In this document: positions 8,694-13,285 of the stretch, piece by piece
How the letters are laid out: every line of letters starts with the position of its first letter
How positions within the stretch are numbered: the stretch's first letter is position 1
DNA from: Candidatus Bathyarchaeota archaeon
Lineage (GTDB): Archaea > Thermoproteota > Bathyarchaeia > 40CM-2-53-6 > RBG-13-38-9
Length of the DNA: 64,000 nt
Reading direction: 5' to 3'
Assembly (NCBI GenBank): GCA_963807605.1
Contig: CAWECG010000003.1
Coordinates: 928,001-992,000, forward strand
Program-made: the position numbers and the translations under genes
Notes under the pieces: generated by a model
Seen by the model: the letters and a program-made list of their open reading frames with translations, nothing else
Databases searched by the model: none
What the model was told of the DNA's origin: nothing

Positions 8694-11048
8694 TTGACTA
8701 GGAAACAGCTTCATCTGAAACTAGAAGAAGTAAAGACTGATCTCGCTGAAATCAGAGGCTTGGAAATAGCCATCGGCAGCATTATTGAGGAGAAGTGGGC
8801 TGAGCCGATGGGCCCGACCCAATACCCATCTCTGACCACTCTAAGAGAGTGGGACTTGAAACTACTTAAGAAATACAAGCCGATGTATCTTCCGTATTGC
8901 GATTCCTGCTGCCTCTGCACAATGGGCAAATGCGATTTAACCAGAGGCAAGAGAGGCGCATGCGGCTTAGACATGTCAGCGCAACAATCACGCATCGTTT
9001 TACTGGCCTGCACGATAGGCGCCGCAACACATACTGGACATGCAAGGCACCTAGTGGATCATCTCATTGGCAAGTACGGCCAAGGATATCCAATAGACGT
9101 CGGAAGATCAGTTGGCATAGAAGTTGAGGCCCCCATTACCCGGCTAGTGTGCGGAGTCAAACCAAGAACTCTTGGAGACTTGGAAGATGCTTTGGGCTAC
9201 CTTGAGACTCAGGTAACTCACCTTTTGGCGGCTACCCATACGGGACAGGAAGGAAACGAGCTGGATTTTGAGTCAAAGGCATTCCACGCGGGAATGATCG
9301 ATCAGGTTGGAATGGAGATTGCTGACATCGCGCAGACCTCGACTCTCGGCTTTCCAAAGGCTGACCCTGAAGCACCTTTAGCAGAGATAGGTCTTGGAAC
9401 CGTTGATGCGTCTAAACCAGTAATTCTAGTAATTGGACATAACGTTCCACCAGCAGCCGAGATAATCGATTATCTAGACAGAAACGGCCTCTCCAACAAA
9501 GTTGAAGTCACAGGAATATGCTGCACCGCTCTTGACCTTACAAGATACAATCAGAAGGCTAAGATAATAGGACCTATCTCATGGCAACTACGATACATCA
9601 GAAGTGGGATTCCAGATACCATAGTTGTCGATGAGCAATGCATCAGAGCCGATGTACTGATAGAAGCCCAGAAACTCAATATTCCAGTAATAGCTTCCTC
9701 CGAAAAGAATTGCCTCGGATTAAAGGACAGGACTCTAGATCCAGCTGATGAGATAACAACCGATCTCACAAGCGGGAGGGCCCAAGGCGCATTTATTCTT
9801 GCCCCGGGGAAAGTTGGTGAAGTTGCTGCCAGGACCGCTATTGGGGTAGCTCCTAAACGTTTGAAGTTCAAAACCATCCCAGACATGGCTGACATCATTA
9901 AGGGAGCAAAGAGGTGCGCTCAATGTAATGATTGCAGAAGGGCTTGCCCCAACGACTTGCCAATCCCAGAGGCTCTCAGTGAGGCAGCTTCAGGAAACAT
10001 GAGTAGACTATCAGATCTGTACGATGTTTGCATCGGCTGTGGTAGATGCGAAAGTGCTTGTCCAAATAGTATTCACATACATACTTTCATAGCTAGGTCG
10101 GCTGAGAAGGAGATCAAAGAGGAGAAGTCTAAGATCAGGGTTGGTAGGGGCGCCATACAAGATGTGGAGATAAGAAATGTCGGCGCACCTATCGTCCTAG
10201 GCGAGATACCAGGTGTGATAGCACTAGTTGGATGTGCAAACTATCCCAATGGTGGAAGAGAAGTAGCAGAAATAGCAAGCGAGTTCATCAAGCGCCGGTA
10301 TATCGTTGTATCTTCTGGATGCTCAGCCATGTCTATAGCGATGGAAAAGGATGAGGAAGGTAAGTCATTGTACGAAACGTATCCGGGCACGTTTGAAGCC
10401 GGAGGTCTGCTCAATGTGGGTTCATGTGTTGCCAATGCTCATATCGCTGGAGCAGCCGTCAAGATAGCGAACATATTTGCAAAACGTAGCTTGAGAGCCA
10501 ACTATGAGGAGATCGCGGACTATATTCACAATCGTGTAGGTGCCGTGGGCTTGGCTTGGGGTGCTATAACACAGAAAGCAGCTTCAATAGCAAGCGGTTT
10601 CTTGCGACTGGGAGTTCCAGTTGTTGTAGGACCTCACGGATCCAAGTATAGACGTGTGCTTCTGGGAAGACGAGACCGCGAAGAGGATTGGTACGTTTAT
10701 GATGCCCGTACTGGGGGTCAAGTCTACGCTGGCCCCACGCCTGAACATCTCTTCTACGTAGCCGAGACAAAGGAGGAGGCTATAGTAACGATGGCTAAAC
10801 TATGCCTGAGGCCTAACGATACCAGCAAGGGGCGGATGATAAAACTCACAAACTACATAGATCTGCATAAGAAACTTTACGGCATCATACCTGACGATCT
10901 TCACCAACTTGTACGGAGAGAGACTGACATCCCAATAACAATGAAGGACGAGATCATTAAGATCTTGGAGAAGGGCGGATGGAAAGAACAGACGATTCCA
11001 GACCCAACTCTGCTCCCAAGAATGATTAGTACGAGGAAAGCAAGATGA
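8694..11048 (+). CDS. cdhA: CO dehydrogenase/acetyl-CoA synthase alpha subunit
   Basis: PMGPT, CDSCCLCTMGKC, GHNV, GICCT, DEQC, two ferredoxin CxxCxxCxxxCP motifs, GCAN, GSCVANAH, QKA, PDPTLL. Confidence 0.96.
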   Translation: MTRKQLHLKLEEVKTDLAEIRGLEIAIGSIIEEKWAEPMGPTQYPSLTTLREWDLKLLKKYKPMYLPYCDSCCLCTMGKCDLTRGKRGACGLDMSAQQSRIVLLACTIGAATHTGHARHLVDHLIGKYGQGYPIDVGRSVGIEVEAPITRLVCGVKPRTLGDLEDALGYLETQVTHLLAATHTGQEGNELDFESKAFHAGMIDQVGMEIADIAQTSTLGFPKADPEAPLAEIGLGTVDASKPVILVIGHNVPPAAEIIDYLDRNGLSNKVEVTGICCTALDLTRYNQKAKIIGPISWQLRYIRSGIPDTIVVDEQCIRADVLIEAQKLNIPVIASSEKNCLGLKDRTLDPADEITTDLTSGRAQGAFILAPGKVGEVAARTAIGVAPKRLKFKTIPDMADIIKGAKRCAQCNDCRRACPNDLPIPEALSEAASGNMSRLSDLYDVCIGCGRCESACPNSIHIHTFIARSAEKEIKEEKSKIRVGRGAIQDVEIRNVGAPIVLGEIPGVIALVGCANYPNGGREVAEIASEFIKRRYIVVSSGCSAMSIAMEKDEEGKSLYETYPGTFEAGGLLNVGSCVANAHIAGAAVKIANIFAKRSLRANYEEIADYIHNRVGAVGLAWGAITQKAASIASGFLRLGVPVVVGPHGSKYRRVLLGRRDREEDWYVYDARTGGQVYAGPTPEHLFYVAETKEEAIVTMAKLCLRPNDTSKGRMIKLTNYIDLHKKLYGIIPDDLHQLVRRETDIPITMKDEIIKILEKGGWKEQTIPDPTLLPRMISTRKAR

Positions 11049-11587
11049 TAAGGGCTGAGCCTTGGCAGACAGCCGAGATTGCTGGCTCGATGAGAGCTCT
11101 CCCCATCACCAATCCTGAAGTTGTCGTTACCGCCGTTAAACGGTCCAAGCGCCCCGTACTGGTCGTCGGGCATGAAGCCGTCGAAGAGGACCTGACAGAC
11201 GGAAAGCCTATCGACTATGCGATTCAGATGGCTGAATTGGCGGAAGTCCCAATTGTAGCAACAGCACATATTATCGGTGAATTTTCAAAGCGGGGATTTC
11301 AGAAAGCATCTTGGATGCCTGTTGTGGACATTGCGAACAGACTAAAGGATCCCGAATGGAGAGGTCTTGATGGTCAAGGTCGATATGACCTTGCGTTATT
11401 CATGGGTCTGCAGTATTACTTAGAGTGGGTTGTACTTTCAGGGCTTAAGCACTTCGCACCTCACGTGAAGACTATATCACTGGACAGATATCACCAACCA
11501 CATGCCAATTGGTCGTTTTCAAATATGACGGTTGAAGATTGGGAACGGCAACTCAAGGCCATTGTGGTTCAACTGAAAGAGCAATGA
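11045..11587 (+). CDS. cdhB: CODH/ACS epsilon subunit
   Basis: EPWQTAEIAG, KRPVLVVG, DPEWRGLDGQGRYDL; ATGA overlap with cdhA. Confidence 0.94.
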   Translation: MIRAEPWQTAEIAGSMRALPITNPEVVVTAVKRSKRPVLVVGHEAVEEDLTDGKPIDYAIQMAELAEVPIVATAHIIGEFSKRGFQKASWMPVVDIANRLKDPEWRGLDGQGRYDLALFMGLQYYLEWVVLSGLKHFAPHVKTISLDRYHQPHANWSFSNMTVEDWERQLKAIVVQLKEQ

Positions 11588-11616
11588 AACCTTGAGCTTT
11601 ATTGGGGAGCTTTTCG

Positions 11617-11710
11617 GAAGTCTTATCTAAATCGGCTTAAGCATACGAGGATATGGCGGGTGGGTTTCCGACCCGTTCCGCCCAATAAATCCCGGAGTCG
11701 GACATGTAGT
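11617..11710 (+). promoter_or_regulatory. queT promoter and structured 5' leader (riboswitch candidate)
   Basis: TATA-like TTATCTAA 11623-11630; hairpin GGCGG/CCGCC + TGGGT/ACCCG with loop TTCCG complementary to CGGAG 11693-11697. Confidence 0.55.
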
Positions 11711-12241
11711 TTGAATCCCAGAATTGTAAAAGAGATTACAGCGACTGCTATTTTCGCGGCATTATATGCTACAGCAGTCGTTGCACTGATGCCTATCAGT
11801 TTCAGCATCTTTCAAATCAGAGTTGCTGACGCCCTACTGCCCTTGGCGATTATGTTCGGCTGGCCTACCATTGCAGGAGTGACCTTAGGAACTATTATTG
11901 CCAACTTTTTTGGAGGTTTAGGAATGATTGATGTTTTGGGAGGATCCGCGGCCAATTTTGCTGCAACATTGCTTGCTTGGCGTATAGGGCGCATGAAGGT
12001 TAAGGGTAGCTGGGTCTACGCCATCACTATGGAGGTAGTGACTGTGACCCTGATAGTGGGTACGTATTTGAGCTATTTGCTCAACCTTCCACTTGCAATC
12101 GGGTTCTCAGGGATCTTGCTGGGCAGCGTGGTTACGATAGGTGTCTTAGGATACATACTTTTGAAAACGATCTCAAGACCATCTCTGGCGGGGGTTTTGA
12201 GGTCATATGGACTAAAGCTTTATTTGAAAAGACAAGTTTGA
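11711..12241 (+). CDS. queT: QueT-family 7-deazaguanine precursor transporter (ECF S-component)
   Basis: AIFAALYA...PISFSIFQIRVADAL...GVTLGTIIANFFGGLGMIDVLGG; likely start TTG 11711 (track starts at 11660). Confidence 0.87.
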   Translation: MNPRIVKEITATAIFAALYATAVVALMPISFSIFQIRVADALLPLAIMFGWPTIAGVTLGTIIANFFGGLGMIDVLGGSAANFAATLLAWRIGRMKVKGSWVYAITMEVVTVTLIVGTYLSYLLNLPLAIGFSGILLGSVVTIGVLGYILLKTISRPSLAGVLRSYGLKLYLKRQV

Positions 12242-12274: not shown

Positions 12275-13285
12275 TTATTCTGCATTAGGAGCACTTGACT
12301 TTCTAAGAGCGTCAACTGCTTTCAGAGCCCAGTCTGGATCCGCGACTAGGGCACGGCCTACTCCAACCAAATCTGCAGTCCCCCTCCTCAAAATTGTATC
12401 TGCAAATTGCGGCGTTCTTATTCCTCCCGTAGTGATAACCGGAACTCCCACAACTTGCTTAATGTGTGCTGCGAGATGTGCGAAATATCCTTCACCAGAA
12501 AGATTCGGAGGTCTAGATCCGCAGAGGCCGCCGGAAACATCGATTACTGATATTCCCAGACTGACGAGTGATTGGGCGATCTTCCGTGCCTCCTCTATCG
12601 TAAGGCCGCCAGGCTTCATGTCGTCTGCGCCCAAACGGTAGAGTATAGGAATATCCTTCCCGGCAGTTTTTAGAACTTCGGATGCAACTTCAAGTGAGAA
12701 TCGCATTCTATTCTTGACAGGACCTCCATACTTGTCAGTGCGTGTGTTTGTGATAGGGGAACAAAACTGGTTCAGAAGAAAGCCGTGGGCACCGTGGATC
12801 TCAACTGCGTCGAAACCTGCCTTGACGGCACGGCTTGAGGCAAGACCGAATTTCTTGACTATAGACTCGATCTCATCGACAGCCAGCTCACGAGGGACTT
12901 CCTTGCTTTCTGGGTCTGGGACTGGCGAGGGCGCCACTGGCTGGGTTCGACATATTCTAGAATTTGCCTTTCTACCAGCATGGTTGATCTGGATCGCAAC
13001 TGCTGTTTCTTCATCATGTACTGCCTTAACCAACTTTGACAAACCAGTGATCAGTCTATCGCTGTATATTCCAAGTTGCCTCTCTGAAAGTCTACCAATC
13101 GGATCTATGTAGCTATGCTCAACAATTACTAGACCTACGGATCTGCACCGGGCCTTGTAGTGAGCAACTAAAGCTTCAGTAACGTCGCCGGATTCTGTGG
13201 CAAGTTCTGTGGCCATCGGTGGCATAACAATTCGATTCTTAATACGGAGTTTCTGTATCGTAATGGAATCAAGAAGCGAAGCCAA
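12275..13285 (-). CDS. NADH:flavin oxidoreductase (old yellow enzyme family)
   Basis: KNRIVMPPM, QINHAGR, GFDAVEIHGAHGFLLNQF, RTDKYGG, GRALVADPDW. Confidence 0.93.
   Translation of the reverse strand: MASLLDSITIQKLRIKNRIVMPPMATELATESGDVTEALVAHYKARCRSVGLVIVEHSYIDPIGRLSERQLGIYSDRLITGLSKLVKAVHDEETAVAIQINHAGRKANSRICRTQPVAPSPVPDPESKEVPRELAVDEIESIVKKFGLASSRAVKAGFDAVEIHGAHGFLLNQFCSPITNTRTDKYGGPVKNRMRFSLEVASEVLKTAGKDIPILYRLGADDMKPGGLTIEEARKIAQSLVSLGISVIDVSGGLCGSRPPNLSGEGYFAHLAAHIKQVVGVPVITTGGIRTPQFADTILRRGTADLVGVGRALVADPDWALKAVDALRKSSAPNAE

Follow-up and report, generated by a model that had tools for sequence, protein, structure and literature searches.

Bacterial preQ1 riboswitches control the queCDEF, queT and yhhQ genes and bury the Shine-Dalgarno (SD) sequence in a pseudoknot (PMC11625349, PMC5372724). 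In the preQ1-I class, which acts on queT, yhhQ and que operons, the type III form fully occludes the SD, and the affinity for preQ0 is only moderately lower (PMC11625349). A gamma-mode pocket that comprises 10 nucleotides and is floored by U-A-U triples is common to the preQ1-II and preQ1-III classes (PMC11602147). For archaeosine, archaea use preQ0 as the free base, and it is the last such base before insertion into tRNA (PMC5372724). The riboswitches previously reported from archaea are those for TPP and fluoride, with rare examples of the FMN, Mg2+-I and guanidine-II types (PMC5473149, a survey of 2017). These are also cis-acting leaders, but they belong to bacterial classes that occur in some archaea as well. 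No description of an archaeal preQ0/preQ1 riboswitch or of a queT-leader riboswitch was found in the literature searched, the coverage of which was incomplete, and the word "archaea" is absent from a 2024 review of the preQ1 family.

The leader described here lies in a 64,000-nucleotide stretch of DNA from a Candidatus Bathyarchaeota archaeon (hereafter, the window), where a 123-nt spacer separates cdhB from a gene of the queT family. The cdhB gene encodes the epsilon subunit of CO dehydrogenase/acetyl-CoA synthase (PF02552) and has its stop codon at 11585-87. The downstream gene matches the QueT family of Pfam (PF06177) over residues 9-155 with E 1.3e-27 and 97.3 bits, against a cut-off of 33.7. 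It is probable (roughly 0.7) that the leader at 11652-11711 is a translational OFF switch that senses preQ0 and a member of a new archaeal riboswitch class. The features of the locus are collected in Table 1.

Table 1. Features of the queT leader and its surroundings, in window coordinates.
Feature	Position	Strand	Details
Promoter: purine-rich BRE-like stretch, then TATA-like box (11622-11631)	11615-11631	+	Sequence; register of aligned copies
Whole conserved leader element	11652-11711	+	Full-length match to covariance model R1: 57.4 bits, E 1.3e-13
P1, 5' strand	11655-11659	+	Partner 11678-11682; paired in 100% of 96 distinct copies
Inner hairpin P2, 5' strand	11661-11665	+	MFE fold; 4-5 bp hairpin in 153 of 184 copies from relatives
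P2 loop	11666-11670	+	Sequence
Pseudoknot, 5' strand	11667-11672	+	Loop positions 11667-70 and P2 bases 11671-72; six Watson-Crick pairs with 11697-11702
Inner hairpin P2, 3' strand	11671-11675	+	MFE fold; 11671-72 common to P2 and pseudoknot
GUU junction, P2 to P1 3' strand	11675-11677	+	Invariant or nearly so in alignments A1 and A2
P1, 3' strand	11678-11682	+	MFE fold and pair counts
A-rich linker (11683-89) and AAA-N-CCCGG motif (11687-95)	11683-11695	+	Unpaired in all models tested
Pseudoknot, 3' strand	11697-11702	+	SD position of relatives; end 8 nt upstream of the TTG start
AUG, then directly UAG	11704-11709	+	Between pseudoknot 3' strand and start codon; sequence
queT coding sequence	11711-12241	+	TTG start; PF06177; predicted ECF-type S component, queuosine/archaeosine precursor

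The minimum free energy (MFE) fold of the window leader, calculated with ViennaRNA, reproduces both the outer and the inner hairpin. The outer stem, inner stem, loop and A-rich linker all lie where an earlier note on this DNA had placed them. The 71-nt window fold is a little better than those of shuffled sequences, with a z score of -1.93, and 7 of 200 shuffles fold as well. The hairpin by itself is unremarkable and constitutes weak evidence; it is conservation that carries the case.

The family was traced by searching for the QueT protein in 41 related genomes and then reading the upstream DNA. The same leader of about 60 nt was present ahead of nearly every QueT homologue, even in front of paralogues sharing only 30-38% identity. 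A covariance model, R1, built from 27 related queT leaders returned exactly two strong matches in the window's 2.65-Mb genome, both before queT paralogues; the one outside the window scores 52.3 bits and lies on another contig ahead of a second QueT paralogue. In an even sample of 151 genomes from the class, 93 have an R1 match, with few exceptions a single one, and in a sample of 151 genomes from the phylum 32 do, families outside the class included. A strict pattern of the invariant parts, scanned over 185,579 prokaryotic species represented by one genome each, recovered at least 120 loci. Among the matches listed, 118 are archaeal by record title; most are from Bathyarchaeia, and Methanomethylicota, Nitrososphaerota, Promethearchaeota/Hodarchaeota (Asgard) and one Methanocella are represented too. 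Two further listed loci are genuine copies (64-73 bits) on contigs binned as bacterial soil MAGs, one of which adjoins a family-B DNA polymerase gene and is therefore likely to be a mis-binned archaeal contig. The orthologous leader of a sister species is degenerate (20 bits), so that the leader is dispensable in at least one lineage.

Across the family, the consensus begins with a GC-rich P1 of 5 bp, followed by a short 5' junction (GU or GUGAGU), P2, an invariant GUU and the 3' strand of P1. It then continues through a linker that closes in an invariant AAA-N-CCCGG and through 2-4 variable bases to a strand complementary to the P2 loop. Pairs were counted on an alignment of 99 copies (96 distinct rows); because the 3' strand aligns imperfectly by column, copies were also scored singly. 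Taken together, P1, P2 and the pseudoknot are 89.7% paired, compared with 53-62% when the partners are slid. Cells changed on both sides number 78, as against 24.5 in shuffles (none of 500 shuffles was as high), although relatedness among the sequences inflates these shuffle statistics. The innermost P1 pair switches between G-C and C-G in 10 copies, and the outermost is GC in 73, AU in 10, GU in 5 and CG in 3 of the 96 distinct copies. P2 varies among relatives through pairs such as GGAG/CUCC and GGGU/ACCC. Its register is ambiguous: pairing directly beside the GUU is possible in 120 of 184 copies, and most prefer a longer helix 2 nt further in.

The helix between loop and tail can be formed in all 170 copies scored, with a mean of 6.1 contiguous Watson-Crick pairs versus 4.5 for shuffled tails. 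In the alignment with 96 distinct rows, five of its six column pairs contain double-sided changes. At least 60 distinct duplex types are found. Some copies have a longer SD (GGAGGUGA-like) and a loop lengthened to match, and in others both pseudoknot strands are replaced by unrelated sequences. For the majority of members, a canonical archaeal SD 5-9 nt upstream of the start codon makes up the 3' strand, and the loop mimics the 16S rRNA 3' end, that is, the anti-SD; in a typical member the SD:anti-SD duplex amounts to -13.8 kcal/mol. In 164 of 184 copies, the inner hairpin at its longest has 2-4 nt in common with the pseudoknot strand. This sharing of bases points to two partly exclusive states, one in which the hairpin is formed and the ribosome site is free, and one in which the pseudoknot is formed and the site is buried.

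These data redraw the pairing scheme proposed in the earlier note, which had suggested that related queT leaders be compared for covariation. Such covariation is indeed seen, with P1 and the pseudoknot both covarying in the 96 distinct copies. The note had read the sequence correctly in placing CGGAG at 11693-97 and TTG at 11711, with 13 nt from GGAG to TTG. Its proposed pseudoknot between the loop and CGGAG is contradicted by the family, in which the pairs concerned are unpaired in 32, 31 and 82 of the 96 distinct copies with almost no compensation. That pairing is possible in the window and in those members, roughly half, that carry GGAG, but it is not maintained: CCCGG is invariant, whereas the two positions after it are free to vary. 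In the window the pairing is worth -6.2 kcal/mol, compared with -9.8 kcal/mol for the duplex 11667-72/11697-702. The latter, TCCGAC with GTCGGA, had been listed as one of two mutually exclusive alternatives. The word exclusive is partly right, in that the helix shares two bases with the inner stem, but this pairing is the conserved pseudoknot of the family. The other alternative, GGGTTT with AAATCC, fails as a helix, its U-A pairs being missing in 74 and 90 of 96 copies; it amounts at most to a GG:CC contact that never compensates. Nor does the GGAG of the window correspond to the SD of the family, as had been supposed. Relatives have their SD, of the GGAGG type, as a distinct element another 2-4 nt downstream, where the window has 11697-11702, and the window GGAG overlaps an invariant single-stranded motif.

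Some 20 unpaired bases are invariant or nearly so over phylum-level distances; at the positions that defined the pattern scan this invariance is partly circular, whereas alignments A1 and A2 were gathered by gene homology and are free of that constraint. The persistence of unpaired invariant bases is typical of a ligand pocket and is suggestive of one here. Within the linker and motif region, the invariant columns in A1 and A2 are A36-A38, C40-C41 and G44. Pair counts in the 96 distinct copies revealed no covarying partner for the 11683-11695 strand, which is a candidate for a ligand-pocket or tertiary strand. A tertiary CCG:CGG pairing of 11673-75 with 11693-95 was considered and set aside as too anecdotal, a single suggestive double change being seen in one copy (L021). 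A local hairpin in the MFE fold, in which 11698-11703 pairs with the region of the start codon (11709-11714), was likewise set aside, as it needs G-U pairs and is absent from the closest copy of the same subtype (L005). No tandem G-A motif of a K-turn/L7Ae site was apparent by eye.

Upstream of the element, 168 aligned copies have an A-rich block at -40..-36 and a block with 70-88% A+T at -35..-27 relative to the first base of P1. The TATA-like box recognised in the earlier note is confirmed from the sequence at 11622-11631 and is in register with the A+T block. The two blocks correspond to the archaeal BRE/TATA promoter pattern and would make this RNA the extreme 5' end of the transcript. From archaeal TATA-to-TSS spacing, the predicted transcription start is at about 11649-11653, a few bases upstream of P1. 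Three observations identify TTG 11711 as the start codon of queT: the TTG-AAT at this position recurs at the equivalent site in two other genera, residue 9 is where the Pfam domain begins, and stops in orthologous leaders (for example L002, L003 and L030) close the upstream frame that runs from GTG 11660.

The window copy belongs to a rare subtype. It is without the GAGU insert of the 5' junction, and its pseudoknot strands are neither SD nor anti-SD. The loop sequence was found in 3 of 401 sampled phylum genomes (the window's genome and two from another family) and also in L005, a genome from the same family. In the distant pair the helix is lengthened by further compensating pairs, which argues that the pseudoknot pairing is under selection in the subtype too. 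The AUG that directly follows the pseudoknot strand (11704-06 in the window) is kept in all four subtype copies. How initiation would be blocked is less clear in the window than in the main type, the pseudoknot partner being no SD.

Downstream genes were counted for 159 distinct copies with a callable open reading frame, with QueT identified by an HMM built here. The gene is queT in 145 of the 159. Another six are wrong-frame calls (the QueT frame is visible in L022, L023 and L069; the other three are L040, L070 and L105). Five copies precede an ECF-S-like membrane protein of 228-237 aa that has no Pfam or NCBIfam match, and for which the nearest ESM Atlas cluster is annotated "ECF transporter S component" (score 0.94), which is no more than a lead. 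The remaining three come from Nitrososphaerota contigs, where the motif is followed by a QueE-like radical-SAM gene and then QueC, which in one case is a GATase-QueC fusion. With few exceptions, then, the motif stands upstream of genes for the import or synthesis of preQ0.

The second motif copy in the window's genome heads a queT2-queC operon in which the genes overlap by 4 nt. Both uptake operons of this genome carry the motif. The genome is 94% complete and encodes QueC, together with a TGT-family gene in a 616-aa frame that is read from its size as an archaeal tRNA-guanine transglycosylase. No match to PTPS/QueD was found in this 94%-complete assembly, and the search for QueE gave only generic radical-SAM matches at 23 bits. 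As neither QueD nor QueE was detected, the organism seems unable to make the deazaguanine core and would have to import 7-carboxy-7-deazaguanine (CDG), preQ0 or both. The set of genes under the archaeal motif mirrors the bacterial preQ1 riboswitch regulon of queCDEF, queT and yhhQ.

The element is most likely an undescribed riboswitch class. It combines two general features of riboswitches: a conserved, covarying leader at what is predicted to be the 5' end of the mRNA, and association with the genes of one pathway. In the proposed mechanism, a small molecule would bind directly to a pocket formed by invariant unpaired bases of the GU/GUU junction and the CCCGG strand, and the bound ligand would stabilise the pseudoknot. 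What the pseudoknot would in turn bury is the SD in the main type and bases -14 to -9 in the window. Translation initiation could then be blocked once the precursor suffices, amounting to feedback repression of uptake and synthesis. Both the OFF direction and the nature of the ligand are suggested by analogy with all three bacterial preQ1 classes. The best candidate ligand is preQ0, because it is the last free base before tRNA insertion and the product on which all the controlled gene sets converge. The earlier note had already proposed a 7-deazaguanine-type translational switch with a pseudoknot hiding the ribosome-binding region. That idea agrees with a covarying leader linked to queT, queC, queE-queC and an ECF-S-like gene, although its partner strand and SD assignment had to be replaced. 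The broader reading, which we favour on balance, is that this is the first riboswitch class apparently specific to archaea, an HLout pseudoknot sensing preQ0. It would control queT, ECF-S-like genes and queE-queC in Thermoproteota, Asgard archaea and at least one Methanocella, and the window subtype would sequester a non-SD strand.

It is conceivable, if unlikely, that the same RNA switch responds to another ligand, namely CDG, preQ1, archaeosine base, queuine, or a purine such as guanine. Among the bacterial aptamers, those of preQ1-I accept preQ1, preQ0 and guanine at graded affinities (PMC11625349). Import of CDG is plausible given that the second copy heads queT-queC, that CDG is the substrate of QueC and that QueD and QueE were not found. 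However, an OFF switch responding to CDG would shut down the very enzyme that consumes it, and archaeal tRNA receives preQ0 rather than preQ1 as the free base (PMC5372724). An end-product signal, by contrast, fits all four contexts (queT, queT-queC, queE-queC and the ECF-S-like gene), whose common product is preQ0. Decidedly improbable is that the leader senses no metabolite and serves as the binding site of a trans-acting factor, whether a translational repressor, a tRNA-modification enzyme or an uncharged or unmodified tRNA. Covariation and gene association would suit a protein-binding leader as well as a riboswitch, and the 5' junction of the main type is, by eye, what we take to be loosely D-loop-like. 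The window subtype, however, is entirely without the D-loop-like insert. Moreover, no conserved co-located regulator gene was seen, the neighbours varying by locus, and the near-invariant unpaired bases span several archaeal phyla. The element is also small (about 60 nt) and self-contained, with SD sequestration built in as in known pseudoknot riboswitches.

We consider it very improbable that the leader is a constitutive structure that senses nothing and sets a low translation rate, mRNA stability or a temperature response, with the SD:anti-SD helix damping expression of a membrane protein. Such a helix is stable unaided at the energies given above for a typical member and for the window, a GC-rich helix of 6-7 bp might form without ligand, and the hairpin alone is energetically unexceptional. 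A constitutive structure would nevertheless leave unexplained the invariant unpaired AAA-N-CCCGG and GUU, the partly exclusive design of hairpin and pseudoknot in 164 of 184 copies, and the restriction to 7-deazaguanine genes, with the only two matches in 2.65 Mb both at queT. Translation of queT from GTG 11660, with the conservation reflecting an N-terminal protein extension, has next to no likelihood. The 11660 frame is open in the window, but the stops that close it in orthologous leaders refute this explanation. Further, the substitutions are compensatory in RNA helices and not synonymous, with the TTG as start the QueT domain begins at residue 9, and the element also occurs upstream of unrelated genes.

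With the preferred reading of a preQ0-sensing OFF switch, the obvious comparison is to the three preQ1 classes. Searching 11400-11900 against all 4227 Rfam 15 families with cmscan at E<=10 gave no match, RF00522, RF01054 and RF02680 included, in agreement with the earlier note, which by eye had seen no fit to preQ1-I, -II or -III. RF01054 likewise gave no match at E<=10 over the whole of the window's genome, in a search whose control exceeded the cut-off in 1 of 14 control genomes. The nearest parallel in working is preQ1-II (RF01054; Lactobacillus rhamnosus, Streptococcus pneumoniae), known as the COG4708/queT motif, which is also found in the queT leader and also has HLout topology (PMC11625349). 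In preQ1-II the whole SD is in the pseudoknot helix, with translational OFF logic (PMC11625349); in the archaeal family a loop within P1 pairs with the SD region. The resemblance does not extend to membership. The preQ1-II RNA is about 80-100 nt long, compared with about 60 nt, and it is restricted to Bacillota, whereas the motif described here is archaeal and its likely ligand is preQ0 rather than preQ1. By sequence, the archaeal consensus is without a U-rich strand, the equivalent of J2-3, for U-A-U triples, and its own invariant bases (the GUU junction and AAA-N-CCCGG) differ from those of preQ1-II.

The preQ1-I RNA (RF00522, types I-III) is similarly small, with a 5-bp P1, an A-rich linker and a strand pairing back into the loop. 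Its P1 3' strand is preceded by UC (type I) or AC (types II and III), which contain the specificity cytosine (PMC11625349), in contrast to the invariant GUU of the archaeal motif. The tail of preQ1-I pairs with bases beside P1, whereas the partner of the archaeal tail is a loop in an embedded hairpin (HLout), and the invariant CCCGG strand has no preQ1-I counterpart. The preQ1-III RNA (RF02680; Faecalibacterium prausnitzii) is likewise HLout, with an anti-SD in the loop that docks on a downstream SD (PMC11625349), but it is about 100 nt long and bacterial, holds the SD helix far from the pocket and follows another consensus. Overall, the archaeal motif would work like preQ1-II or preQ1-I type III, but it is a member of none of the three classes.

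Very few riboswitches have been recognised in archaea, all of them from bacterial classes (PMC5473149). If the proposed reading is true, the leader would represent a fourth structural solution to 7-deazaguanine sensing, in the form of a compact 60-nt aptamer suited to structural work. It would also document SD-sequestering RNA control in Thermoproteota and Asgard lineages. For the genomes concerned, the motif would provide a marker for precursor salvage, bringing with it a candidate new transporter family and the salvage of CDG via queT-queC.

The genome from which the window derives carries a second copy of the motif, on another contig (C1), which heads an operon composed of a second queT paralogue and queC. 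The encoded QueT is 34% identical to the window's QueT, and the paralogue and queC overlap by 4 nt. Neither QueD nor QueE was found in this genome, which is 94% complete. The position of this motif copy at queT-queC, together with the failure to find QueD and QueE, suggests that the organism salvages 7-carboxy-7-deazaguanine (CDG) in addition to preQ0. The features discussed here are collected in the table below.

Coordinates of the second motif copy and of related and neighbouring features
Feature	Location	Strand	Remark
Second motif copy and operon	contig C1:363781-364942	(-)	loci L032 and L211
Degenerate leader of the orthologous queT, sister species in the window's genus	L003:2025-2085	(-)	20 bits only
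Membrane protein gene after the motif (example)	L144:4165-4866
cdhA and cdhB (acetyl-CoA decarbonylase/synthase alpha and epsilon subunits)	window 8694-11587		upstream of queT
Old-Yellow-Enzyme-type NADH:flavin oxidoreductase (PF00724)	window 12275-13285		downstream of queT, convergent

Genes other than queT also follow the motif. In three contigs from Nitrososphaerota MAGs (L111, L164 and L168) it precedes a gene for a QueE-like radical-SAM protein and then QueC, which in L164 forms a fusion with a glutamine amidotransferase domain; at these loci it is synthesis, not uptake, that lies under the putative control of the motif. Downstream of five further copies (L052, L058, L103, L144 and L145) is a gene for a multi-pass membrane protein of 228-237 aa, for which no match was returned in Pfam or NCBIfam. 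In the ESM Atlas, the cluster closest to it bears the name ECF transporter S component (score 0.94), and in at least one genome with this protein (G016) a queT search with the window protein gave no match. The protein is a candidate for a new family of 7-deazaguanine transporter. The cdhA/cdhB and oxidoreductase genes that flank the window's queT have no relation to deazaguanine metabolism, and in other genomes the neighbourhood of the motif is not conserved.

In the window, the pseudoknot 3' strand is followed directly by AUG, UAG, a single base and the TTG start (11704-11713). All four copies of this subtype (L001, L005, L080 and L081) retain an AUG at this site, and in L080 and L081 the frame that it opens continues into a QueT-like protein. 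The AUG-UAG of the window may be a mini-ORF made up of a start and a stop codon, or else the remnant of a former start.

The degenerate leader in the sister species is a motif copy in decay or re-purposed, with changes in the 3' strand of P1 and in CCCGG; the same genome has a good copy (57.6 bits) at another site. In a divergent subtype (L220-L223, L085 and L088), which scores just 23-37 bits, the 5' junction contains GUGGUU and the tail is CCCC-AAAA in place of CCCGG-N; these two changes may be linked, possibly through a tertiary contact.

Genuine copies also occur at L174, L182 and L187, whose contigs were assigned to bacterial soil MAGs (Methylomirabilota and Acidiferrales) and to a Methanocella MAG. 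The Acidiferrales-binned contig is probably a mis-binned archaeal one, as a family-B DNA polymerase gene adjoins the motif. The Methanocella copy would widen the range of the motif past Thermoproteota and Asgard.
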